Origin: Candidatus Arthromitus sp. SFB-rat-Yit
GTDB taxonomy: Bacteria > Bacillota > Clostridia > Clostridiales > Clostridiaceae
DNA: 32,000 bases
Reading direction: 5' to 3'
Assembly (NCBI RefSeq): GCF_000283555.1
Contig: NC_016012.1
Coordinates: 420,001 to 452,000, forward strand
The notes beneath the pieces were generated by a model. The model was not told where the DNA came from and did not search any database. It was given only the letters and a program-made list of their open reading frames with translations. Every line of letters starts with the position of its first letter. Positions within the stretch are counted from its first letter, which is position 1. The translations under genes were made by a program, and so were the position numbers. Shown piece after piece: positions 14,997 to 30,697 of the stretch.

Positions 14997-15089
14997 TAAT
15001 TGAATAAATTAGTTAAATAATTTGATTGATTAGTATCAATAATAAATAGTGTAGTGATTAAATTTTTACATAGAGTTAAGGTGATATTT

Positions 15090-18000
15090 ATGAGTGATAG
15101 TTTGAAAAGATATCAAGATGTTTCTATTAATTTTAGTTTAGATAATAAGACAATATATTTAGATAACATTTATAATGAGGATTTTTTAGACTTATATGTT
15201 TTGAAAAGTTATAACGAAGATATTTATTCTAATTTTATTAATTTTATATTTTCAGATAGTATTGAGGTATTAAAGATTATTGAGGATCCTTTAACTTGGC
15301 AGAGTGATAAATTATTTAAAATTAAGGAAGAAGTAAATAAAATAAAAAAAGATAAGCTTAGTAAATTTGAGGAAAGCCATGATTTCCCAAATATAAAGGA
15401 TTATGAGATATTTTTGGATAATTTTTATAAAGGCAATGTAAGCAAAAATTTGGATTTAGTAAATATCCAATATAGCAATATGAATAACGTAAGTTTAAAT
15501 TTAGATAAGTTGTGTAAAGGTAATAAAAGAAGTGATTTGTATATAGGATATCCATTTATTGAAGGGTATATTGATAATGTAGGTTTTGTTCGTATGCCAT
15601 TTTTTCTTATACCTGTCGAAGTATTTAGTGAGAATAATGAGTGGTTTATCAGAAAAATGCTTAAAAGAAAGATAAAGATAAATAGGTATTTGATTATTAT
15701 ATTTCAAAGAATTCTTAAACGTAAAAATTTAGAAATTAAACTTGATTATGATTTCAATAGAGATTTTAAAAAAGATGTGTTAAAAGTATCATTAGATTTT
15801 TTAAAAAGTTTAGATATTGGATTTCATAATAATGATGTAATTTTAGACAATAAGTTTGATGAATTTTTGGGTATGATACGGAACTTAGGTAGTGATAAGT
15901 CTGATCTTGATATTAAAAATTATTTAGTTTTGGGTAGGTTTGATGTAATAGGAAATAAGTATGAGGATTATGAATCACTTATTTATACAGATATGTCTAA
16001 AACTCTTGTAGGAAGACTGATTTCTAATGATTGTGATAATAAAGATAATTATAAAGAAGATATATATAAAGAAATTTATGTTAAAGATAAATTGGATTTT
16101 GATCAAAAGAAGTCTATTTGTTTAAGTGATGATAGCTATATTACACTTATAAATTCAAATTTAGATATAGGAAAAGATACTACGGTAACTAATTTTATAT
16201 TTGATAAAATATGTAAAAATAAAAGTTTACTTGTAGTTTCTAAAAATAAGGAATATTTGAAAAAATTATACAATGAATTTTCTTCTACAAAACCTATTAT
16301 TATGGATTTATTTCAAAGCAATTTCTATCAAAAATTTTATAGGAGTTTTGATAGAATGCTTAATTTTAAAAAAAATTCAGATATAACTAGAGAATTTAAT
16401 GAAATTTTGGATGGTATTAATAAGAATTATCGTTTTATAGAAGATTCAAATGAAATTTATAATAAAATAGAAAATTTTGGTTTATCGCTTAAAGATATGT
16501 ATGAGTTAACAATGAATTTAGGTGATAATGATATCGATAAGGTATCGTTTTCTAAATTTAAATTAAATAATCCTGTTTCAGGTTGTACATTTGATGAAAT
16601 TATTGGTGCAATTGATAAAATTAAAGATGAGAATTTAATTGATATTTTTATATCGCATAAAGAGTATTTGAATAAACATAAAATTCTAAATTCTATAAGA
16701 GAAGATTTTAATTTTGATGATGTCAATTTATATTTAGGTAGATTAAAATCACTTAGAGAAAAATATGATAAGTTGTCCTTGGATATTGATCAAAATAAAT
16801 GTAGTGAGAGTGTAGTTGAATTATTTAAGGAAAATAGTTTTACAAAAAATGAGATTATAGATAAGTGTTTTAAATGTAATGAACATTATATTGAATCTGA
16901 TAAGTATGATAATTCTGATGTTTCAGAATTTTGGATTAAAAGTTTATGGTTTGGGAAAAACAATAAAAAAAGTACAGAAGTTAATAAGCGAGCTTTGATA
17001 GATACTGAAATGTATTATGAGGCTGTAAAAAAGATTGATTTTGATATAAGTTTTATTAAAGATATAGTAAAGCATGATAAATTTGAATTTATCAGGGAGA
17101 GGGTATTTAGTTTTAACGATATAACTTATTTTTTAGATAATTTAATAGAAATGATGGATAGTTTTCACGAATTTATAGAGTATAGTTATAAAATTAAAAA
17201 TTTTACCACACTTGTGAATGATATCTTGGAGTATGTATATAACAACTCAATTAGCGAGAAAATGATGAAAGATAATTTAGATAAAATTTTAAAATTTTCT
17301 ATATTTGTAAATATTTCAAGAAGACATAGTAAACACGGTGATGCACTTGAAAATTATAAAATGGTTGATAGATATTTTAACAATCTTATAGAATTATTTG
17401 ATAAAAGAGCGAGTGTATTAGAAAAATTCATACTAAATAATGTTATGAGTGAAGCGAAAGAGAGTTTAATTGGTACGGATGATAAAATAAACAAAAATGA
17501 TTTTTCGAATATTTCCAAATATTTAATTAAAGATTTTATAAATACTTTTAATAAAGAATGTTTAAAATTATTTCCATGCTTTTTAGTTGATTACGAAGAA
17601 GTATTTTCTAGAATACCTTTAATTGAAGGTTTATTTGACTATGTAGTTTTTGTAGATGGGCACAATTATTTTTTAGAGGAAATTATACCTATAGTATATA
17701 GAGGGAAAAAGATGGTTATATTTGGTAGCGATAACCAAATTGATTGTAGTAGTAGGAGTTATAATATAATATCTCGTGATGTTATAGAAGTTTCAAATAA
17801 TGTATTTAAATTTTTGGGTGATAAATTTAATAGAGTAGATTTAAAATATACGTATACATCTGGTAATGAAATTTTTAGAGATATATCAAATTGTTTATTC
17901 AAAACAAAAGATATTATTTCGTTACCTAAGGATAGAAAATACTCATATATGGATAATCCGTTTATGATATTTACTATAGGCAATAAAGATATAGAAAATA

Positions 18001-19010
18001 TAAATGAATATGAAGCGAAATTTGTTGTAGATCTTTTGTTCAAGCATTTAAAAGTTAAAGAATACGAGGAATCCATTGGGATAGTTACAATAAATAGAAA
18101 TCATGCAGATTTAATTAAAAATGTAATCAAGGATAGATTAAAGTTAGATGAAGAATTTAATTTTTTGTATAATAAGGAGTGTAAAAAATACAAATCAAAT
18201 GATGGAATATATATAACAAGCATTTCTGAAATTTCATATAAGAAGATAGATATTGTAATATTTTCTTTAGGTGGCGAGAGAAATCTAGAAAATGAGATAG
18301 AAATTAAATTTAATGATATAGAAAATCAAAATTGTAGAAATAAATTAAACATGTTTTTGATGATGACTCAATGTGAAATGGATATAGTTACATCACTTAG
18401 TATAAGCGATATAGAAAATAAGGAATATTTTAATGAAAATATAAATGTTTTGAAGAAATATTTAAACTATGCTAATGAAATTTATAGTGGTAATATGATT
18501 AAAGTTATGGATGAATTAAATTATGGTGAGAAATTTGATAATAAATCTACCAAGATATTAGATATTATACATGATAAGCTAGTTGATAGAGGACTTATTG
18601 TAGAGAAAAATTTTGGAACGCAATTTTACAAATTTGATTTTGCAATATATGACAAAGATCTTAAAAAGTATATTTTATTTGTGGAATTTGAATCTAGTAT
18701 AATTCAAAAATTTAAAGATAAACCAGAAAGATACGTAGATTGTTTTATTTATTTTGATAAACTTGGATACAATGTTTTAAAAATTTGGAGCAGAGATTTA
18801 TGGAGCGATATAGATTTCCAGGTTGAAAATATAATTTATAATTATTTTTTAGTTAGAGATAAATTATTGAAATTGAGGTCTAAAAATATTTTAGTAGAAA
18901 ATTTAATTAATAAACATACGATCTTAAGTAAATTTGTAGATATTATTGAAAATAGACGAATAGAGTTGATTTGTGAAAATAGTGGAAATAAAAGTTTGAT
19001 AAAAAGATAG
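15090..19010 (+). CDS. Giant DUF4011 / SF1 (Upf1-like AAA_11/AAA_12) helicase-related protein with C-terminal DUF559/Vsr-like endonuclease-fold domain; catalytic motifs degenerate
   Basis: DUF4011-like core 'YIGYPFIEGY..VRMPFFLIPVEV'. Helicase-collinear blocks 'LDFDQKKSI', 'SLLVVSKNKEYLKKL', 'KKMVIFGSDNQ', 'IGIVTINRNHADLIKNVI', 'IDIVIFSLG'. C-terminal 'YKFDFAIYD..YILFVEFES..LGYNVLKIWSRDLW'. RBS AAGGTGA lies 7 nt before ATG 15090; the ORF-track start 15054 is a GTG upstream. Confidence 0.6.
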   Translation: MSDSLKRYQDVSINFSLDNKTIYLDNIYNEDFLDLYVLKSYNEDIYSNFINFIFSDSIEVLKIIEDPLTWQSDKLFKIKEEVNKIKKDKLSKFEESHDFPNIKDYEIFLDNFYKGNVSKNLDLVNIQYSNMNNVSLNLDKLCKGNKRSDLYIGYPFIEGYIDNVGFVRMPFFLIPVEVFSENNEWFIRKMLKRKIKINRYLIIIFQRILKRKNLEIKLDYDFNRDFKKDVLKVSLDFLKSLDIGFHNNDVILDNKFDEFLGMIRNLGSDKSDLDIKNYLVLGRFDVIGNKYEDYESLIYTDMSKTLVGRLISNDCDNKDNYKEDIYKEIYVKDKLDFDQKKSICLSDDSYITLINSNLDIGKDTTVTNFIFDKICKNKSLLVVSKNKEYLKKLYNEFSSTKPIIMDLFQSNFYQKFYRSFDRMLNFKKNSDITREFNEILDGINKNYRFIEDSNEIYNKIENFGLSLKDMYELTMNLGDNDIDKVSFSKFKLNNPVSGCTFDEIIGAIDKIKDENLIDIFISHKEYLNKHKILNSIREDFNFDDVNLYLGRLKSLREKYDKLSLDIDQNKCSESVVELFKENSFTKNEIIDKCFKCNEHYIESDKYDNSDVSEFWIKSLWFGKNNKKSTEVNKRALIDTEMYYEAVKKIDFDISFIKDIVKHDKFEFIRERVFSFNDITYFLDNLIEMMDSFHEFIEYSYKIKNFTTLVNDILEYVYNNSISEKMMKDNLDKILKFSIFVNISRRHSKHGDALENYKMVDRYFNNLIELFDKRASVLEKFILNNVMSEAKESLIGTDDKINKNDFSNISKYLIKDFINTFNKECLKLFPCFLVDYEEVFSRIPLIEGLFDYVVFVDGHNYFLEEIIPIVYRGKKMVIFGSDNQIDCSSRSYNIISRDVIEVSNNVFKFLGDKFNRVDLKYTYTSGNEIFRDISNCLFKTKDIISLPKDRKYSYMDNPFMIFTIGNKDIENINEYEAKFVVDLLFKHLKVKEYEESIGIVTINRNHADLIKNVIKDRLKLDEEFNFLYNKECKKYKSNDGIYITSISEISYKKIDIVIFSLGGERNLENEIEIKFNDIENQNCRNKLNMFLMMTQCEMDIVTSLSISDIENKEYFNENINVLKKYLNYANEIYSGNMIKVMDELNYGEKFDNKSTKILDIIHDKLVDRGLIVEKNFGTQFYKFDFAIYDKDLKKYILFVEFESSIIQKFKDKPERYVDCFIYFDKLGYNVLKIWSRDLWSDIDFQVENIIYNYFLVRDKLLKLRSKNILVENLINKHTILSKFVDIIENRRIELICENSGNKSLIKR

Positions 19011-19033
19011 TAGTGAAACTACTATCTTTTTTT
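19006..19033 (+). terminator. Intrinsic terminator after the helicase-like gene
   Basis: GATAGTAGT (19006-19014), loop GAA, ACTACTATC (19018-19026), followed by seven T (19027-19033). The stop codon lies in the stem. Confidence 0.8.
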
Positions 19034-19049
19034 GATTACAAAATTATTT

Positions 19050-19105
19050 CAAAATATTGAATAAAGTGTTGAAATGTGTTAATATATTGTTTACAAAATA
19101 TTGAA
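19050..19105 (+). promoter_or_regulatory. Direct repeat pair CAAAATATTGAA flanking the essC core promoter (operator-like)
   Basis: Identical 12-mers at 19050-19061 (overlapping the -35) and 19094-19105 (just after the -10/+1). A partial third copy TTACAAAAT is at 19036-19044. Confidence 0.4.
19057..19085 (+). promoter_or_regulatory. Sigma-A type promoter of essC-esaB
   Basis: TTGAAT (19057-19062), 17-nt spacer, TAATAT (19080-19085). It lies ~40 nt upstream of the essC ATG. RBS AGAGGGGA at 19115-19122. Confidence 0.55.
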
Positions 19106-19124
19106 AAATTTTTAAGAGGGGATT

Positions 19125-22100
19125 ATGAAAAGGGTAAAAATTTATGTTTTCTATAAAAATAAATTTATAGAATGGGATATTGAAAGTTTCCAAAATAGTT
19201 CTATTGAATTTTTATTGGATAAAGATATAACTTTATTTTCTAGAAATTATTCATTTCATTTTGAATATGAGAATGGGAATTATATATTAAAACCTTTTAA
19301 TGAATTTGAACTCATCTATAAAGATCAAAAATTAAATTCAAAATTAATTTTAGATGGAGATGTAATTATCTGTGATTTAATTGGGGATAAATCTAAGGTT
19401 ATTTTATTTATACAGTATGAGGATTTTTTAGGTTGTAGTTTTTATAAGTGTAAGTTAAACGGGATTTCACAGATAAAGATTGGGAAAAATAATTATGCAG
19501 ATATCACATATTCTAACTCTAATTTATTAGATTACCATATTATTTTAAATTTTAAGAAAAATAGTGCAGAGCTTATAAGCAATGCTGGAGGATGTTATTT
19601 AAATAATATAAAGACTTTAAGTGGAAAAGTTTTATTTGGAGATATAATTTTTATTTATGGGCTCAAGATCGTTTATTTAGGGGATTATATTGCTGTAAAT
19701 AATCCAAATGGAAAAGTAACTTCTAGCTTAAAGTTTTCTAATGATGATATTGAAGAAATGGAAATGATAAAATCTACTAATATTAGTAGAGGAGTCGAGG
19801 ATGATAGCAAGGTTTACTTGGATTTAGATGAAATTATAGAATTTCGAGTTGATCCTCCTGTTGTTCGTGATTATAATCTTTTGAAAATTTTATGTATTGG
19901 ATTAATTCCACTAAGTGTGATAGGCGTAGTAATTTGTGTTTTGACTTTCAATTATATAGAGGCAAGTTATATTTATTCTATTATAGTTGGGGCAGCAGGT
20001 TCTTTGATTGTTATACTTCTTTTGTGTTTGTTAATGTATTTTAGAGTTAATAATACAAGGCAAAAAGAGAAGTACGATTCATATTTAAATGATAAATTTA
20101 AAGAAATATCGGTGATTAAAGAAGAATGGGTGAGAGCTTTATCCCAAAGATATCCAAAAGCTATTGACTGTTATGAAAGCGTTATTAATTTTGATAATAA
20201 TGTTTGGAATAGGGTTTGTAGAGAAAATAATTTGTTGAGCTTGACAATAGGGCAAAGTGAATCTTATTTTGGAAATTTAAAAATTTTAACTGAAAATGCT
20301 AAAGATAATAAACTTTTCGATTCCCATAAGATACTTAAGAAAGTACCGATAACCATACCTCTTAAAAAGATAAATAAACTTTCGGTTGTATCTGATATGC
20401 ATAAAAATTATGATGTATTTAAAAATTTTGTAGTGCAACTTACAAGCAATAATTCATATAAAGATTTAAAAATTGTTACAATTGCATCAAAAGATCATGA
20501 AGAAAACATAAATTTTGTAAAATTAATCCCGCATGCTTATTCTGATAAAAATGATTTTAGATATTTTGCCGTAAACGATGATGAAGTAATTGACGTTTTA
20601 CATAATTTACGCAAAATAATACGAGAGAGAAAAAATATTCTAAAACAAAATCCTAAGTACGTTTTTAGAACATCTTATATTGTTTTCTTATTCTATAATT
20701 TTACAATTCCGATGGATCAGTTTTTAAATTATATAAAAAGTGTTGGAAGTCCATTAAATATTCATTTTGTAATTTTCACAATTAACAAAAAAGATATTCC
20801 TGAATGTTTTAAATATATACTTGATGTGGCTGAAAAAGATCAGACTCTTTATAATGTCCGAGAAAATGGAATTAAGAAGGTTGTTTTACCTTATGACTAT
20901 GGTGATATTGCTAATTTGATTGATATGGACAAGTTCACAAATGCATTATCTAAGATAAAATTAATTACAGATGGAATGGTTAAAGGATTTGAAAGTAAAT
21001 CAATTTATGATTTATATGAAATTTCTTCAGTTAAAGATTTAAATATTGAAGAAAGATGGAGAAAAAATAAATTATTAAGTTCTCTGAATATACCAGTTGC
21101 TACTAAGGATTTAAAAGATGTATTTACGCTTAATATACATGAAAAACATGATGGTATAAATGGAATAATATTTGGCGAAAGTGGCGTTGGAAAGACTGAA
21201 CTATTGAAAAATATAATACTTTCATATTCAATAAATTTAAGTCCAAATTTGTTGAATTTTATAATTGTTAAATCAAACTACAATATTAAATTTAATAATT
21301 TTATACATCTCCCTCATGTCCTCGATATTTTGGACAAGGAGGATCTTTCAGAAAAGAATAGATTGATAGATCTTATTAAAAATGAAGTTGGTAAGAGGCA
21401 AAAATTATTCGATAGTATAGGTGTTAAAGATATAGATTCATATTTAAACATCTATGAAAGTTATTCAGATATTACGGTGATTTCACATTTAGTCATTGTT
21501 ATAGATGATGTTTGTGATGATGATATTAATTTTATAGATGAGTTATCTCAAATGTATTCATCAATGCTTAGTACAGGGATTCATATTATTGTATCTTCTA
21601 ATTGTGTTAGCTCATTTGTTGAAAAAGAGAATATTTTAAATAATTTTGATTTTAAAATATGTTTTAGGTTATCCGATGTTAAAGATTTATTTGAAATTAT
21701 GGGAGAAAATGAAACCTTAAATTCGAATTCTACGGGTAAATTTAATGTAAGATTGTCGGATAGTGTTGTAGTTAATAATGTTCAAAATGTATATTCAAAT
21801 TATTATGTTGAAGATCATACAGAACAATTAGGAATAGAACTTGTAAATAATTGTGGTACTGTTAATAAAAAAATCGTAAGGTCAAATGAAATAAATGAAT
21901 TTGTACTTCAAGAGGATGAAATAATAAATGAAATTATAAATCTTTCATCTGACATAAATATGGTGAATATGTCGCCTTTTAATAGTTCACTTAGATATTT
22001 AAGCCTTCATGATTTATCTGGATATAATAGTAATTTTAATGGATTTATGTGGACTGAGTCGGATAAGCCTTGTGATGCAATAGTTGGGGTTGTTGATGAT

Positions 22101-23414
22101 CCGAAGTATCAAGTTCAAAGATTTTTAAGTGTGGATTTTAAAAATGTAGGAAATTTATTTGTATTTGGATCACCTGGAACAGGTAAAAGTAATCTTATTA
22201 AAACTCTTATTTATTCTCTATGTTGTGAATATAAAGAAAGCAATTTAAATGTATATATTGTCGATCCTAATACTAGAAATACAGATTGTTTCGGATATGC
22301 ACCACATGTTAAAAATATAGCATATACAAAAAATGAGATTAATTCTTTATTTAGAAAAATATTGGAAGAATTTGAACTTAGAAAAAAGATATTTGATAAT
22401 TTAGATATTTCAACAATTGATCAATATAAATTGAGAGTTGGGGAAGAACTACCGAATATAGTTTTAACAATTGATAGTATACAGGAAATTTTAGATGATA
22501 AATGGGATTATATGAAATTTATCAGAATGATAGCAAGAGATGGTAAATTTTATGGCATTTATGTTTGCATAACTTCATCTGAGTATGGAAACACAGAAAT
22601 TAATTTAAGTGAGTATTTTGATAATAAGTTTGTATTGAGATTTAACGACGAGTCCCTATATAAAAAAATATTAGGAAAAGATTATAAGATAGATTCCAAA
22701 TTTAAAGGAAGAGGTATAGTTAATTATAGTGATTCATTAGGAGAGAGGATTCTTGAATTCCAAATAGCCTTGCCAATGATGAGTAATAATGACGTTGATC
22801 TTAACAATAAATTGAAGCGTTTATTTACGCATATGAATGAAGTTAATAATAAAATTTATCTTGGATCAGAAATTATGGATGCATTAGAGTGTGAAGAAAT
22901 TAAAGAAGATAACTCGAATAATAACGATAATGATCAAGTGAAAAATTTAAATAGTTATTTAAATGATTTTATAGATAATTATAATAATTTGTGTGTTGTA
23001 TGTGATTTGGAAAATAATGATGATGTTTTGTATGATATAAATAAAGCTGTGGGAGAAAAAGGGATTAAATCTTACTTTTTTCAAAACCGAGATTTAAATG
23101 AAAATGAAGTAGAAGAATTAATAAATTGGATGGATTCTATAAGTGACGAGAGTGTTTTTGTTATTATAAGTAATATAGAGGGATTAATATCTTCATGTAA
23201 TGATAGAATGATTGAGTTATTTAATTCTATTTTGAAGAGGGAATCTAGAAAAATGTATTTCATTACATCTATATATAAAACTAGTAATGTAAATGAGAAG
23301 TGTTCAGAGGTAATAGATTTATTGATTTCAAATGGGGCAAGTATGATTATAAATGATGATAGAAGTGCAACGATTTTATATAAATCTCAAAAGGATCTTA
23401 TTAAGATAAATTAG
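19125..23414 (+). CDS. essC: Type VII secretion (T7SSb) FtsK/SpoIIIE-family ATPase EssC/YukB-like
   Basis: N-terminal FHA-like modules ('IKIGKNNYADITY...GCYLNN...LFGDIIFIYGLKIVYLG'). Two TM helices (LLKILCIGLIPLSVIGVVICVLTF; SYIYSIIVGAAGSLIVILLLCLLMYF). EssC-typical 'YPKAIDCYESV...VWNR'. P-loop domains with GESGVGKT and GSPGTGKS, and 'HLPHVLDILDKED' / 'KRQKLF' blocks. Confidence 0.9.
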   Translation: MKRVKIYVFYKNKFIEWDIESFQNSSIEFLLDKDITLFSRNYSFHFEYENGNYILKPFNEFELIYKDQKLNSKLILDGDVIICDLIGDKSKVILFIQYEDFLGCSFYKCKLNGISQIKIGKNNYADITYSNSNLLDYHIILNFKKNSAELISNAGGCYLNNIKTLSGKVLFGDIIFIYGLKIVYLGDYIAVNNPNGKVTSSLKFSNDDIEEMEMIKSTNISRGVEDDSKVYLDLDEIIEFRVDPPVVRDYNLLKILCIGLIPLSVIGVVICVLTFNYIEASYIYSIIVGAAGSLIVILLLCLLMYFRVNNTRQKEKYDSYLNDKFKEISVIKEEWVRALSQRYPKAIDCYESVINFDNNVWNRVCRENNLLSLTIGQSESYFGNLKILTENAKDNKLFDSHKILKKVPITIPLKKINKLSVVSDMHKNYDVFKNFVVQLTSNNSYKDLKIVTIASKDHEENINFVKLIPHAYSDKNDFRYFAVNDDEVIDVLHNLRKIIRERKNILKQNPKYVFRTSYIVFLFYNFTIPMDQFLNYIKSVGSPLNIHFVIFTINKKDIPECFKYILDVAEKDQTLYNVRENGIKKVVLPYDYGDIANLIDMDKFTNALSKIKLITDGMVKGFESKSIYDLYEISSVKDLNIEERWRKNKLLSSLNIPVATKDLKDVFTLNIHEKHDGINGIIFGESGVGKTELLKNIILSYSINLSPNLLNFIIVKSNYNIKFNNFIHLPHVLDILDKEDLSEKNRLIDLIKNEVGKRQKLFDSIGVKDIDSYLNIYESYSDITVISHLVIVIDDVCDDDINFIDELSQMYSSMLSTGIHIIVSSNCVSSFVEKENILNNFDFKICFRLSDVKDLFEIMGENETLNSNSTGKFNVRLSDSVVVNNVQNVYSNYYVEDHTEQLGIELVNNCGTVNKKIVRSNEINEFVLQEDEIINEIINLSSDINMVNMSPFNSSLRYLSLHDLSGYNSNFNGFMWTESDKPCDAIVGVVDDPKYQVQRFLSVDFKNVGNLFVFGSPGTGKSNLIKTLIYSLCCEYKESNLNVYIVDPNTRNTDCFGYAPHVKNIAYTKNEINSLFRKILEEFELRKKIFDNLDISTIDQYKLRVGEELPNIVLTIDSIQEILDDKWDYMKFIRMIARDGKFYGIYVCITSSEYGNTEINLSEYFDNKFVLRFNDESLYKKILGKDYKIDSKFKGRGIVNYSDSLGERILEFQIALPMMSNNDVDLNNKLKRLFTHMNEVNNKIYLGSEIMDALECEEIKEDNSNNNDNDQVKNLNSYLNDFIDNYNNLCVVCDLENNDDVLYDINKAVGEKGIKSYFFQNRDLNENEVEELINWMDSISDESVFVIISNIEGLISSCNDRMIELFNSILKRESRKMYFITSIYKTSNVNEKCSEVIDLLISNGASMIINDDRSATILYKSQKDLIKIN

Positions 23415-23432
23415 TAATTTGGGGGAATATAC

Positions 23433-23678
23433 ATGGTTTATTTACAGGTATATGTGCCGGATAAAAATAGGTTTTTTGATTATAGAGTATCGAGAAAAAT
23501 AAATATTTGTAATTTAAAAAGCTTAATTGTTGAATCAATATATAATATAAAATGTGATGATGAGTTTATAAGGAATAATTACTCGTTAATAGATTTTAAT
23601 TGTAGAAGAAGATTGAAAGATGATATAAATTTGTGTAATTATTCTATTTATAATGGATATAAATTTTTGTTAATATAG
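23433..23678 (+). CDS. esaB: YukD/EsaB-like ubiquitin-fold T7SS accessory protein
   Basis: 81 aa, starting 18 nt after essC with a GGGGGA RBS. The pattern 'LQVYVPDKNRFFDYRVSRKINICNLKSLIVESI....L.DDINLCNYSIYNGYKFLLI' matches the YukD layout: a beta-strand start, 'D.R.s....i..L', and a C-terminal 'i.nGd.l.l'. Confidence 0.65.
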   Translation: MVYLQVYVPDKNRFFDYRVSRKINICNLKSLIVESIYNIKCDDEFIRNNYSLIDFNCRRRLKDDINLCNYSIYNGYKFLLI

Positions 23679-23685
23679 AACCAAT

Positions 23686-23723
23686 AAGAGCATGCTTGAA
23701 TGTAAGCATGCTCTTTAATTTTT
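23686..23723 (+). terminator. Strong intrinsic terminator after esaB
   Basis: Perfect 12-bp stem AAGAGCATGCTT (23686-23697) / AAGCATGCTCTT (23704-23715) with a 6-nt loop, followed by TAATTTTT. Confidence 0.85.
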
Positions 23724-23770
23724 AAACATATATAGTAAGTGAATATTTTTATTTTATTTTTGGAGGTAGA

Positions 23771-25285
23771 ATGATTAATAAAATAAAAAATCTTATCATG
23801 ATAAGTTTTATTGCTATACTAATGAGTAATTTTAATGTGATTTCGGGTGCTAAAAATAATATAGGAACAGAGATTTTAAACAGTTATAATACTGGGGAGT
23901 TAATTTATTTAATAAATGAGGATGGGGAATTAGTTAGATTAAATAGAAATATGAAAGATATAGTTCCTGAAAATATGCCTAAACTTCTATCTATTAATGT
24001 TTATGAGGATGATTTTTTTGCACTTACTAGGGAACATGAACTTATTTCTTCTGAGAATTTTAAAACATCAAAAAATATAAGTAAGATTGATAAAAAATTT
24101 TTATTAACATTAGATGGGAAAGTATCTTCATTTGATATAAAAAATTCTAGAGTATTTGGGGATTTTAAAAATGTTAAAGATATAAAAGCTCTAAGTGATA
24201 ATGCAGTTGTGATATATGATGTTCAAGGTAATATAAGTATTGTTAATATTGGAAATTCCAAAATAATGAGCATAAAAAATTTATCAGATATAGAAGATGT
24301 AAATATTTTTAATGAAAATTTGATATTGGTTATAAAAAAAGATGGAACTATGATGGGATTTGGTGATGATTATAATAAGGTTTCCAAAATTATAGAATCA
24401 ATAAAGAACGCAAAAAAATTTATACACCAAATGGATAATTTATATGTTGTAACTTATGACAATAAAGCAATACCAATAATTGAAAATGGTTTTAAAGCAC
24501 CTGAAGAGTATTTGAGAGATATATCTGATATTACTATTAGTAATTTTTCAAATAGTGAAGGCGAATTTTACAAATCTTATTTTGTGACTACTGAAGGAAA
24601 AGTTTCTTATTATATACAAAGTGATAATGAGATAAGTAGTTTTAATAAACAGAAAATTGATTATATTAATGGGTTTGATAATGTAGAAAAAGTTTATGAA
24701 TCAGGGTATTTGACTATAGTACTTCATAGAGATGGTTCTATAACGATACCTTTTAATATTCATCATGAATTGAATGGAATTACAGGTGTAACTAATATTG
24801 AACTTAAAAATCAAAGTTATGTTGTTTATTTAGATAATGGACATGCTATAACATCGCTTGATAATATTATACTAAATGATAGAGGTTCATTTGATAAACG
24901 TGAAGAGATTTCAGATTTATATGAATATTTTAATGTTATTTCGTTAAATACTGTAAATAGGGAAATTAATAAAGAAGATTTTGAAAATATGAGAGAGTCT
25001 ATTTTAAATGACAAGGAATCATTTAAAAATGTTATAAGAAGTTTGTGCTTAGATAGAAAATTCATCTTGATAGATATTGGGTATGATGAAATAATAGAGA
25101 GATTATATTATTCTGTTTTGAATGTCAAACCAAGTTCTGATGAATATAATCATATTTTATATGAAATAATTGAAAAATCAGAGAAAGATAACATGGGCAA
25201 GGAACAAATTATAATTCAGATTGTGAATTATATGTTTGAAAATCCATTATTTGAGGATATATTTAAGAAACTTACTCAAACATAG
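23771..25285 (+). CDS. Secreted beta-propeller-like (RCC1-like repeat) protein with DUF4214-like C-terminal domain
   Basis: Sec signal peptide MINKIKNLIMISFIAILMSNFNVISGA. Repeated 'hhhh..DG.h' blades (LINEDGELVRL, LTLDGKVSSF, VIKKDGTMMGFG, VTTEGKVSYY, VLHRDGSITIPF, VYLDNGHAITS). C-terminal 'IIERLYYSVLNVKPSSDEYNHIL...IVNYMFENPLFEDIF' resembles DUF4214. GGAGG RBS. Confidence 0.55.
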   Translation: MINKIKNLIMISFIAILMSNFNVISGAKNNIGTEILNSYNTGELIYLINEDGELVRLNRNMKDIVPENMPKLLSINVYEDDFFALTREHELISSENFKTSKNISKIDKKFLLTLDGKVSSFDIKNSRVFGDFKNVKDIKALSDNAVVIYDVQGNISIVNIGNSKIMSIKNLSDIEDVNIFNENLILVIKKDGTMMGFGDDYNKVSKIIESIKNAKKFIHQMDNLYVVTYDNKAIPIIENGFKAPEEYLRDISDITISNFSNSEGEFYKSYFVTTEGKVSYYIQSDNEISSFNKQKIDYINGFDNVEKVYESGYLTIVLHRDGSITIPFNIHHELNGITGVTNIELKNQSYVVYLDNGHAITSLDNIILNDRGSFDKREEISDLYEYFNVISLNTVNREINKEDFENMRESILNDKESFKNVIRSLCLDRKFILIDIGYDEIIERLYYSVLNVKPSSDEYNHILYEIIEKSEKDNMGKEQIIIQIVNYMFENPLFEDIFKKLTQT

Positions 25286-27630: not shown

Positions 27631-28194
27631 ATGAGGATTATGATTGTAGATGATGAAAGAAAATTGGTTAATATACTCAAGACTTATTTTGAAAAAGAGG
27701 GATTTGATGTAATTTATTCATTTAACGGTGAGGATGCTATAGATAAATTTTATTCAAATAAAATAGATTTGGTTATTTTGGATTGGATGATTCCTGGGTT
27801 AAGTGGAAATGAAGTATGTAGGTACATAGATGAATATATTAAGAAACCTTTTGATATTAGATTTTTAATTATGAGAGTAAATAAATTGCTAAATTTTGAT
27901 AAGGATATTAGCTTTAAAGATATTAGGATTAATATAAGAGATAAAGTGGTGTATAAAAATGATAAAAATTTAAATTTAACTAAGTTGGAGTTTGATCTAT
28001 TAAGTTATTTTATAAGAAATAAGGGAGTTATATTATCAAGGGATAGGATAATTAATTAAGTTTGGGGATATGACTATGAGGGAGATTATAGGACAGTAGA
28101 TACACATATTAGAAGACTTAGAAGCAAAATAGGGGAAAATAGCATAAAAACACATAGGGGAATGGGATATACTTTGGAGGTTGATGTAGATTAA
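27631..28194 (+). pseudogene. OmpR-family response regulator, inactivated (in-frame TAA plus internal receiver-domain deletion)
   Basis: The receiver start 'MRIMIVDDE...DLVILDWMIPGLSG' jumps from 'EVCRYI' straight to 'DEYIKKPF', so beta4-alpha4 is missing. The wHTH part 'LTKLEFDLLSYF...ILSRDRIIN' hits TAA at 28057-28059. It then continues in the same frame as '[37 protein letters not shown]' to TAA 28192-28194. Confidence 0.8.
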
Positions 28195-29146
28195 GATTAA
28201 GAATAGAGTTTTTATAGGCAATTTATTTTTTATGGACAAGTTTTATATATTGGAAAAAAGAAAATTATTAGATGAGGTTTATAAGATTATATCTTCAAAA
28301 GATATAAATACCGTTTTAGGTACAATTAGTGATATAGAGAAAGAAACATCTACAGTTATTGTTTATACGGAGAATATAGAGGATATTGATATTTTAAATG
28401 AGTATATTTTTACATCATTTTTTAAAAAAGATATAAAACTAAATAAATTTTGGATTACAGAGGATGCAATAAATAAATTAAATATAACGAGTGTAAATAA
28501 TATATACAATCAAGAAATTGTTAAGTATAAATTTTATACTAAAATGTTTAAAAAAGATGATTACATATTTGTTGTTGGAACAACTTTATCAGATGTAAAT
28601 GAAATAATTGAGATAATAAATAAATTTATAGTATTAATAAGTTTATTTTCTATCTTTATTAATTGGATACTTGTGAATGTAAATATAGGTATAATTACAA
28701 AACATATTAAAAATATAAAATATCTGTTAAGGGATATTGAGTCCTTAAATTTTAGGACGGAAGGTATAAAAATGTGTGACGAGATGGGGGATTTATCTAG
28801 AAGTATAAATCAAATGAGTGATAGTTTAAGGAAAGCTCATGGGGAAATAAATTCTCAAAATCTTAAATTAAAGGAATTGCTGTGTAATGTTGCTCATGAG
28901 ATAAAGACCCCCTTGTCTATTATAAAAGTATATGCCCAAGGAATATGGATTTGATGATGGAACTTATTCAGATATTATACACGGTGAAATTGATAAAGTT
29001 GATGGATTGATTGAGAATTTAATATTTTGATTAATACGGATCACTTAAATATTGTTTTAGAGAATTTATTAACTAATGCTATAAAGTATACCGCTAATAA
29101 AAAAATAAGTATTGATTTATTAATATTAGATAGATATGTAATTTAA
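28184..29146 (+). pseudogene. Sensor histidine kinase remnant (nonsense at codon 2, frameshift, deletions, ATPase domain truncated)
   Basis: GGAGG then ATG 28184 is followed directly by TAG, then in frame '[14 protein letters not shown]' with no full TM1. HAMP-like segment and H-box 'VAHEIKTPLSIIKVYAQGI' follow. A frameshift near 28935 leads into 'EYGFDDGTYSDIIHGEIDKVDGLIENLIF', then further stops. The N-box 'LNIVLENLLTNAIKYT' at ~29042-29092 ends at TAA 29144-29146 without G1/G2 boxes. Confidence 0.7.
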
Positions 29147-29194
29147 CATTCGCGTAACATTACCTCGATATTATTATTTTTGAGGTGAAGTTAA

Positions 29195-30697
29195 TTGAAA
29201 AGATTATGTTTAATATTAATTATTATTTTTGGTATGATGTCATGTAATAATCTAAATATAAATAAGGAGATTTCTGGTAATGAAGAAATTTTAAGCATGC
29301 AGAAAGATCATTTTAAATCGGATTTTGATATTGAAGTAAATCCAGAAACTTTTGCTTTAATGGTTAATGTAAACGGGGTTAGTGAGTATGTATCAAATCA
29401 ACTAACTTCAAGAAAAGTTTCAAACTTTAAGGAAGAAAATGGTAAGATATTATGGAGTTATGAAGAAGAAGGAATTAATATTTTAGTTGAAAATAAGGAA
29501 GAGTATATAAATGTATCAATTGAAGGTTAAGACAATAATTTTATTTGGCCAAGTATTTCGGGTGATGAGTATATTTTGACTATTGGACAAGGTAAAAAGA
29601 TACCGTCAGATGATGAAACATGGAAGAAATATTTTAATCAAATTGAATCTATAAATATACTTAGTAATGTTTTATTATTAAAAAACTTTTATAATCCTGA
29701 TATATTTACAGATAAAATTAGTTTTTAAAGTGATTTAGAAAAAGGAATAGAAAATCTTAATGGAATCGAACTTGTAGAGTTTAATAAAAAAGTTTTAAAG
29801 TCAAAACTTAAAGATATGGTTGATCCTGTAGAAGATTGGGCAGATTCGGTTACAGTAGATATTATAGAGGATATGAAAAATTCAGGAATATCAAATCTTT
29901 TAATAAATTTTGATGACTGGAGAACCGGTTTTGCTAAATCAGAATTTGTAGAAAATGCTAATGAATATGGATACTTAATTGGAACATATGATTCATATCA
30001 CTCAATACATAAAAGCGGTGAAGAGCAATGGTTAACTGCTACATTTGAAGATACAACATTATTTGATGAAGCAACTGTTACAAACAAAAAAGGCGAGAAA
30101 ATAGAAGGGTTTAATGGAGTAGGCAGAAAATTAAATCCAAAACTTGCAATGCCTAGTGTGAGAAGTAGAGTTGAGGAAATTTTGGATACAGGTATAGAAT
30201 TTAATACGTGGTTCTTAGATACAGATGGCACTGGAGAAGTGTTTGATGATTACTCTGAAAATCATATAACGACTGAGGAAGAAGATATAAATGCAAGAAT
30301 TGAGAGAGTTAAGTATTTGAATAATGAAAAGGATATGATTGTTGGAACTGAGGGTGGAAATGATTTTATAAATAAATATGTTGCATATGCTCATGGGATA
30401 GATATGGGTCCTTTTAAATGGATGGATAAAGATTTAAAAGATAAAAATAGTGAATATTATCTTGGTTAATACTATTCACTAACAGGTGGAGTTGATAACC
30501 TTATGTCATATAGATGAAGGAGAATGGGAAAAAATAGAAATTTAATTATAAATCATTATAATGTGTGGGGTGATTTTTCTAAGAAAGTTATAAATAAAGG
30601 GATGATATATTTTGAGAATTTAGTAACTGATGGTTCTGTTAAGATGACTTAATATGGTGATGATGGAGAATTGATACATTATACACCTCGAAGATAA
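29195..30697 (+). pseudogene. Lipoprotein gene (possibly glycoside-hydrolase-like) broken by five in-frame stop codons
   Basis: TTG 29195 with a GAGGTGAAG RBS; lipobox 'FGMMSC'. One reading frame runs 29195-30697. It is interrupted only by TAA 29528, TAA 29726, TAA 30467, TGA 30515 and TAA 30650, with coherent protein-like sequence across every stop (e.g. 'VSIEG*DNNFIWPSISGDEY', 'EYYLG*YYSLTGGVDN'). The hydrolase guess rests only on 'WFLDTDGTGE..VGTEGGNDF' and is weak. Confidence 0.65.

Follow-up and report, generated by a model that had tools for sequence, protein, structure and literature searches.

A conserved essC-yukD bicistron with no linked WXG100 gene in segmented filamentous bacteria

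How little of a type VII secretion system (T7SS) a bacterium may keep, and for what purpose, is the question raised by a two-gene locus of Candidatus Arthromitus sp. SFB-rat-Yit, one of the segmented filamentous bacteria (SFB) of the rat. The locus lies in the 32,000-nt stretch of DNA analysed here (hereafter the window, G+C ~25%), within which all coordinates are given, and pairs a gene for an EssC-like ATPase with one for a small YukD-like protein. We find that the pair is a real, self-contained bicistron whose boundaries and gene identities are secure, that it is under purifying selection, and that it stands apart from known relatives in having no linked WXG100 gene. On balance it is probable, if narrowly so, that the genome has kept the pair, in the course of its reduction, as the core of a streamlined T7SS variant that exports cargo encoded elsewhere. 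SFB are major Th17-inducing gut symbionts and among the best-studied immunomodulatory commensals, and little is understood of the route by which their proteins reach the host or their own differentiating compartments. Since databases call the two proteins just "FtsK/SpoIIIE domain-containing" and "hypothetical", the operon has been overlooked as a candidate export device. It joins a T7SS-type motor, conserved, selected and separately regulated, to a ubiquitin-like partner, and neither protein is recognised as T7SS in public annotation.

The two genes and the signals that frame them are as follows.

19006-19033, forward strand: intrinsic terminator of the preceding helicase-like gene, a 12-14-bp stem followed by seven T; 5′ boundary of the unit
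19050-19105, forward strand: promoter region as read from the sequence, with -35 TTGAAT at 19057-19062, a 17-nt spacer and -10 TAATAT at 19080-19085
19050-19061 and 19094-19105: two exact copies of a 12-nt repeat, CAAAATATTGAA, the first overlapping the -35 and the second directly after the -10
19125-23414, forward strand: essC-like (tsxC/essC) gene, 1429 aa
23433-23678, forward strand: yukD-like (tsxB/yukD) gene, 81 aa, with its own GGGGGA ribosome-binding site
23686-23723, forward strand: terminator closing the bicistron, from a terminator scan, a 13-bp stem containing GCATGCT/AGCATGC and then a T-run

An earlier note on this DNA had proposed two open reading frames (ORFs) of 1429 and 81 aa, 18 nt apart, with their own TTGAAT-17-TAATAT promoter and with hairpin-plus-T-run terminators on both sides. 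The same ORF coordinates and the same 18-nt gap were recovered, and the promoter is present with a -10 that is extended by TG (TGtTAATAT, 19077-19085), ahead of an AGAGGGG ribosome-binding site for the essC-like gene. Both hairpins were recovered by folding as well, at -14.5 kcal/mol (z=-5.8) for the upstream one (19000-19040, with the T-run after it) and at -18.3 kcal/mol (z=-6.1) for the downstream one (23680-23725). We compared five SFB-lineage species, using the window locus and the orthologous loci, with 10 kb on either side, of four others. The promoter, 5′ leader, ribosome-binding sites and terminators are kept in all five, and promoter and terminator vary less than the coding sequence does. 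The upstream hairpin and T-run occupy the same place in each species and differ in sequence, and the downstream terminator has an invariant GCATGCT/AGCATGC stem core with a variable loop. Similarly, the promoter, the 5′ leader and the two CAAAATATTGAA repeats are near invariant among species whose proteins are just 40-80% identical. Each copy of the repeat sits inside an imperfect palindrome of the TTCAA-N4-TTGAA type, with no consistent further copy elsewhere in the window or in the SFB loci compared. The repeats are putative operator sites for a regulator.

The large protein had been read in the earlier note as an EssC with FHA-like modules, two transmembrane (TM) helices and FtsK/SpoIIIE domains, and each of these parts is supported, the FHA modules by homology. 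The NCBIfam model TIGR03928 (EssC, Firmicutes) matches it with E=6e-133 over model positions 44-1120 of 1296, leaving the last ~180 positions of the model unmatched, although its 445 bits fall short of the 778 that the curated cutoff requires. Two stretches are recognised by Pfam FtsK_SpoIIIE (E=2.8e-27), and the closest solved structure is that of Bacillus subtilis YukB, which aligns with residues 265-943, that is, stalk, DUF and D1 (E=5.9e-47). The domains fall along the 1429-aa protein in this order.

Residues ~1-245: FHA1-FHA2
Residues ~253-306: two TM helices
Residues ~311-650: stalk plus DUF/D0
Residue 684: Walker A of D1
Residue 1015: Walker A of D2
Residues ~1246-1429: short D3-like tail

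The two TM helices are read from one hydrophobic block, which spans residues 250-309 and peaks at 2.96 on the Kyte-Doolittle scale, and the Walker A motifs are GESGVGKT in D1 and GSPGTGKS in D2, with Walker B-like strands alongside. Eight of nine orthologues, the window protein included, retain both TM helices and both P-loops. Pfam FHA is detected in seven of the nine (best E=1.2e-8) and Yop-YscD_cpl in five; the window protein itself stays below the FHA threshold, and it aligns throughout with the FHA-bearing orthologues, so that its N-terminal ~245 residues are predicted by homology to be of FHA type. NCBI names the ATPase "FtsK/SpoIIIE domain-containing protein", in a cluster that includes WP_014094396.1.

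The 81-aa protein, which the earlier note had called YukD/EsaB-like, has no direct Pfam or NCBIfam match. Two of five orthologues reach Pfam YukD (PF08817) at E=0.005, under the gathering score, and orthologues also give weak matches to UBL and ubiquitin models. An AlphaFold2 model built with 20 orthologues has a predicted ubiquitin (beta-grasp) fold at pLDDT 95.3, and Foldseek aligns this model with ubiquitin, NEDD8 and ISG15 at TM-scores of 0.75-0.78. The C terminus reads ...NGYKFLLI and has no Gly-Gly. Among 1.84 billion representatives the family profile found 37 matches, ~25 of them full-length to proteins of 80-85 aa, down to E=6e-8. Ten such 80-85-aa proteins were retrieved and scanned, and all ten match Pfam YukD, seven above the gathering score. 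In fact, hhalign also aligns the family over its full length with the small EssC-adjacent ORFs of the two closest loci outside SFB, L011 (E=1e-5) and L012 (E=2e-6), and the ORF of L011 is itself a YukD-family match. Because the profile retrieves PF08817 proteins, the 81-aa protein is by transitive homology a divergent member of the YukD/EsaB/TsxB family. Its identity across the SFB clade is 53-85%, and its gene adjoins the essC-like gene in every orthologous locus inspected. The protein is exactly WP_044035503.1, a "hypothetical protein" at NCBI. A cluster look-up returned only RefSeq and UniParc identifiers for it, and for the neighbouring ATPase also the GenBank entry BAK80933.1, which suggests that the small gene was missed by the original genome annotation.

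Is the pair maintained, or does it merely persist? Within the clade the EssC-like protein is 79% identical to that of mouse SFB, 43-54% identical to a group including Ca. Dwaynia gallinarum from chicken, and 36% identical to its most divergent orthologue; below this value there is a gap, and then come EssC proteins of other Bacillota at 22-27%. A genome-contig scan with an alignment query recovered two relatives, Ca. Dwaynia gallinarum and a Clostridiales metagenome-assembled genome, and the metagenome contigs scanned gave no match. Every orthologous locus inspected has the same gene order, with genes for an FGGY kinase, an aldo-keto reductase, an AI-2E transporter and a helicase-like protein ahead of EssC, and with the 81-aa gene, a gene for a ~500-aa protein, a cytidylate-kinase-like gene and NAGPA after it. 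Stop codons in close relatives, which the earlier note had held would speak against its proposal, are absent: the orthologous ORFs are intact down to 36% identity. Ratios of nonsynonymous to synonymous substitution (dN/dS), taken between rat and mouse SFB, are 0.155 for EssC as a whole, with 0.16 in FHA, 0.62 in TM, 0.12 in D0, 0.13 in D1, 0.06 in D2 and 0.30 in the D3-like tail, and 0.27 for the 81-aa gene. The values for the pair show purifying selection and resemble those of neighbouring genes (0.07-0.20).

Genes that are decaying can be seen 4-7 kb downstream (27631-30661), where a response regulator, a histidine kinase and a GH129 glycosidase are pseudogenes by comparison with intact genes in the orthologous locus L004. 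A premature stop cuts the response regulator to 142 aa from 215, the histidine kinase carries frameshifts and has lost its C-terminal ATPase part, and the glycosidase lacks residues 148-314, with what is left of it lying in different frames. Given such stops, frameshifts and deletions in the same window, the intactness of the essC-yukD pair is not the default state in the SFB-rat-Yit genome.

What the locus lacks was the other half of the earlier note, which saw no further T7SSb core gene and no WXG100 or LXG gene in the 32-kb window, and this observation has held up. Pfam scans of all substantial window ORFs revealed no WXG100, EssB, EsaA, EssA or LXG gene. EssB/YukC, EsaA/YueB and EssA are likewise absent from the window, from the next 10 kb downstream and from the ±10-kb loci of the four other SFB-lineage species; around the pair, no other T7SSb core gene or WXG100/LXG gene was found from 19 kb upstream to 18.5 kb downstream. 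For WXG100 we also built a hidden Markov model locally from four seed ORFs of the control locus L011 and searched ORFs of at least 40 aa. The model recovered eight ORFs in L011 (the four seeds and four more), and in the window and the five SFB loci no ORF scored better than E=0.1. Our literature search found no paper linking Arthromitus or SFB with EssC, WXG100 or T7SS. The SFB genome papers describe Sec as conserved, Tat as absent and, possibly, a flagellar apparatus.

How unusual the locus is depends on the system with which it is compared. Like B. subtilis YukB-YukD and Staphylococcus aureus EssC-EsaB, it encodes an FtsK/SpoIIIE ATPase with two FHA domains, two TM helices, a DUF domain and P-loops, and a separate ubiquitin-like protein of ~80 aa without Gly-Gly. 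Unlike those T7SSb systems it has no YukC/EssB, YueB/EsaA, EssA, YukE/EsxA or LXG gene nearby, and its ubiquitin-like gene lies downstream of the ATPase gene rather than upstream. The ATPase itself is only ~22-27% identical to other EssC proteins, scores under the NCBIfam EssC cutoff, has a D3 without a P-loop, and reads GK...DYH in its FHA2 region, where the canonical phosphothreonine-binding motif of FHA domains is GR...SxxH.

A different picture emerges from the T7SSc-j variants of Bacillota, all of which have TsxC and TsxA, and most TsxB, without the T7SSb-specific EssA, EssB and EsaA (Garrett, Higginson & Palmer 2024, PMC11217815). Among these, T7SSf and T7SSj occur in Clostridium, a genus in which FHA-bearing TsxC is found, and an FHA-type ATPase N terminus is found in T7SSb, d, e, f, i and j (PMC11217815). 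The SFB locus resembles the variants, especially clostridial T7SSf and T7SSj, in combining TsxC and TsxB without EssA, EssB and EsaA, within a group of variable gene order; SFB are absent from the supplementary data of that study (PMC11217815). L011 and L012, the closest EssC loci outside SFB (24-27% identity), point the same way. In L011 the ATPase gene precedes the YukD-family ORF, and the EssB, EsaA and EssA families do not appear in the precomputed Pfam listings of the nearest relatives' variant loci. Therefore, with the documented T7SSc-j clusters and the order in L011 in view, neither the missing EssB/EsaA/EssA nor the downstream yukD is remarkable. The earlier note had presented both as anomalies, which is true against S. 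aureus ess and B. subtilis yuk and is weakened by the variants and L011.

The unusual feature of the SFB locus is instead the missing linked WXG100 (TsxA) gene. A WXG100 TsxA is present in every T7SSc-j variant cluster, T7SSi being doubtful, and EsxA is reported to be essential for T7SS export (PMC11217815). The variants' further parts, which include a kinase, a PPM phosphatase, an FHA protein and a large immunoglobulin (Ig)-like protein or a beta-propeller (PMC11217815), are also missing at the SFB locus as its components. L011 and L012 both carry WXG100 genes, and L011 further carries a Ser/Thr kinase, FHA proteins, a giant Ig-like protein and a LytTR regulator. The comparison of neighbourhoods that the earlier note had proposed thus bears out the lack of WXG100 genes for the five species of the SFB clade, but not for the closest loci beyond it. 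A similar contrast is offered by Ca. Epulopiscium viviparus, whose reduced T7SS operon has yukBA, yukD and five yukE genes without yukC and yueBC (PMC10756260). Like SFB, it belongs to the Clostridia, lives with a host, produces its offspring inside the cell and keeps the ATPase and yukD without yukC/yueBC; unlike SFB, it has those five WXG100 genes in its operon, and the SFB locus has none over ~50 kb.

The joint retention of the two genes would have a direct reason in the structure of the B. subtilis complex, in which cryo-EM shows YukD gripped between the FHA and DUF domains of YukB and needed for assembly (Oka et al., bioRxiv 10.1101/2025.01.24.634720). By analogy with YukB-YukD, the ATPase would grip the 81-aa protein with its FHA region on one side and its DUF domain on the other, and the small protein would stabilise an assembly-competent protomer; the ATPase would oligomerise in the membrane through its two TM helices, and ATP turnover at D1 and D2 would drive the export of substrates not encoded at the locus. 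We infer that the pair is not a canonical T7SSb and that any partners or cargo have their genes at other sites or escape recognition. Two ideas could be tested on a clade that links no T7SS genes but those of TsxC and TsxB: that no T7SS can do without WXG100 proteins, and that the ATPase and ubiquitin-like unit (YukB-YukD) is an irreducible core.

Several observations weigh against this reading of the pair as a streamlined export core. No linked WXG100 (PF06013) gene is present in any of the five SFB-lineage species, and the EssC score stays under the curated cutoff, as noted above. The D3-like tail (the C-terminal ~180 residues) lacks a P-loop in every orthologue, and D3 is the substrate-receptor domain in characterised systems. 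This tail shows marginal similarity to P-loop proteins (E ~0.02) and is the least constrained cytoplasmic part of the protein, with the dN/dS of 0.30, 23-28% identity between genera and a variable length, being shorter in rodent SFB. The main text of the SFB genome papers makes no mention of a T7SS, which is a weak negative. A further objection comes from L004 (GCA_964271565.1), where the most divergent orthologue (P0010, L004:10001-13903) has a clean in-frame deletion of both TM helices (window residues ~255-307) and has lost the D1 Walker A (window residues 684-691), with GESGVGKTE replaced by NNE---NKV. All the same, P0010 is an intact 1300-codon ORF with its D2 motifs retained, and L004 keeps the YukD-like gene, the promoter with both repeats and the terminator. 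The loss of the TM helices and the D1 Walker A within an intact ORF is hard to reconcile with a purely channel-forming role. P0010 may represent either early decay in one lineage or a hint of a role without membrane insertion, and this TM-less sister lineage is in either case a natural experiment.

A broader and rather unlikely possibility is that SFB have a two-protein, T7SS-derived machine that works without WXG100 or any other T7SS component. It would serve either for export of the most minimal kind, perhaps of proteins that pass to the host epithelium, or as an exapted, membrane-independent ATPase complex. The membrane-independent role is hinted at because the sister-lineage orthologue is TM-less and dead in D1 and yet intact. 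Exaptation taken by itself, which we regard as unlikely, would mean that the pair no longer exports WXG100-type cargo and serves some other ATP-driven task, such as filament differentiation, the formation of intracellular offspring or a cytoplasmic ATPase-scaffold complex. It would account for the lack of a linked WXG100 gene in any lineage, for a D3-like domain that is degenerate in all orthologues and for the intact, promoter-equipped pair of L004, in which every deletion is in frame; the conserved operator-like repeats suggest tight regulation, and T7SS components are reported to affect development or sporulation in other Gram-positive bacteria. However, the eight orthologues that keep their TM helices and both P-loops, the window one among them, have what a membrane translocase needs, the neighbourhood suggests no alternative partner or substrate, and the TM-less form may be that early decay.

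The reading of the pair as a streamlined export core must also be weighed against a split locus, in which the 1.5-Mb chromosome carries an otherwise canonical T7SSb with EssB, EsaA, EssA, EsxA and LXG toxins at another site, and essC-esaB alone has come apart from it. The N-terminal FHA domains fit this idea as a T7SSb-like feature, since those of T7SSb bind EssB (bioRxiv 10.1101/2025.01.24.634720). Nonetheless, the same synteny without T7SS neighbours is seen in all five lineages, so that any split would be ancient and stable. The protein is also far from canonical EssC (445 bits against 778, and at most 27% identity to non-SFB EssC), its nearest relatives lie in the variant loci without EssB/EsaA/EssA families in their Pfam listings, and the SFB genome papers list Sec, no Tat and no T7SS, which argues weakly in the same direction. 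We consider such a split quite improbable. Least credible of all, and in our estimate very improbable, is a functionless relic, all that is left of an ancestral clostridial T7SS on its way out of a shrinking genome. In its favour, no other T7SS gene remains at the locus, the D3-like domain has eroded and in rodent SFB has become shorter, the L004 lineage has lost its TM helices and D1 P-loop, and the TM segment has a dN/dS of 0.62. Against it, the FHA, D0, D1 and D2 regions stand at 0.06-0.16, a 4.3-kb ORF has stayed open at 25% GC even in species with 36% identity, the coding sequence is less conserved than the promoter and terminator, and the neighbours that are truly decaying show stops, frameshifts and deletions.

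The genes that flank the pair offer two further candidates for T7SS parts, neither of which was retained. The 504-aa protein encoded directly downstream (23771-25285), which is 100% identical to one that NCBI assigns to SFB-rat-Yit, is read as exported: it starts with a signal or anchor helix, continues with an RCC1-like beta-propeller (~45-361) and ends in a helical DUF4214-like domain. It recalls TsgL, the beta-propeller of T7SSg; it lies behind the conserved terminator and has no DUF5050 match, and it was not counted. The family seems to be a narrow one, as all 21 relatives found have a length of ~488-506 aa and an identity of 45% or more. The upstream 1318-aa gene (15054-19010) is helicase/nuclease-like instead, with a C-terminal MTES_1575 restriction endonuclease (REase) domain, a weak partial match to the NCBIfam anti-phage ProA model and a partial PADLOC PDC-S37 match; it keeps its place in the gene order of all SFB relatives and is a possible defence gene. 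A defence-system reading of EssC and its ubiquitin-like neighbour was rejected too, as the PADLOC models mad8 and SspH cover the generic FtsK-like P-loop only and no E1, E2 or deubiquitinase (DUB) gene is nearby.

The window is otherwise ordinary, with genes for a prepilin peptidase, an opp transporter, a flavoprotein, DHFR, ThyA and a hemerythrin beside the syntenic genes and several unknowns, and the next 10 kb downstream are housekeeping (M23 peptidase, YtxC, IF3, L35, L20, TrkHA and PheST). In another rat-SFB assembly (SRR19621095), the decayed histidine-kinase region contains genes for an IS1595-family transposase and an aminoglycoside nucleotidyltransferase-like protein (PF10706; L009:5717-7608) that are absent from the window. 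At the opposite end of the window, positions 40-1084 hold an unassigned 114-aa ORF followed by the type IV prepilin peptidase-like gene (368-1084; Peptidase_A24 at 26.1 bits, cutoff 26.5), and pilus genes may lie just upstream of the window. T7SSg and T7SSh adjoin Tad pilus genes; the prepilin peptidase-like gene here is 18 kb from the pair.

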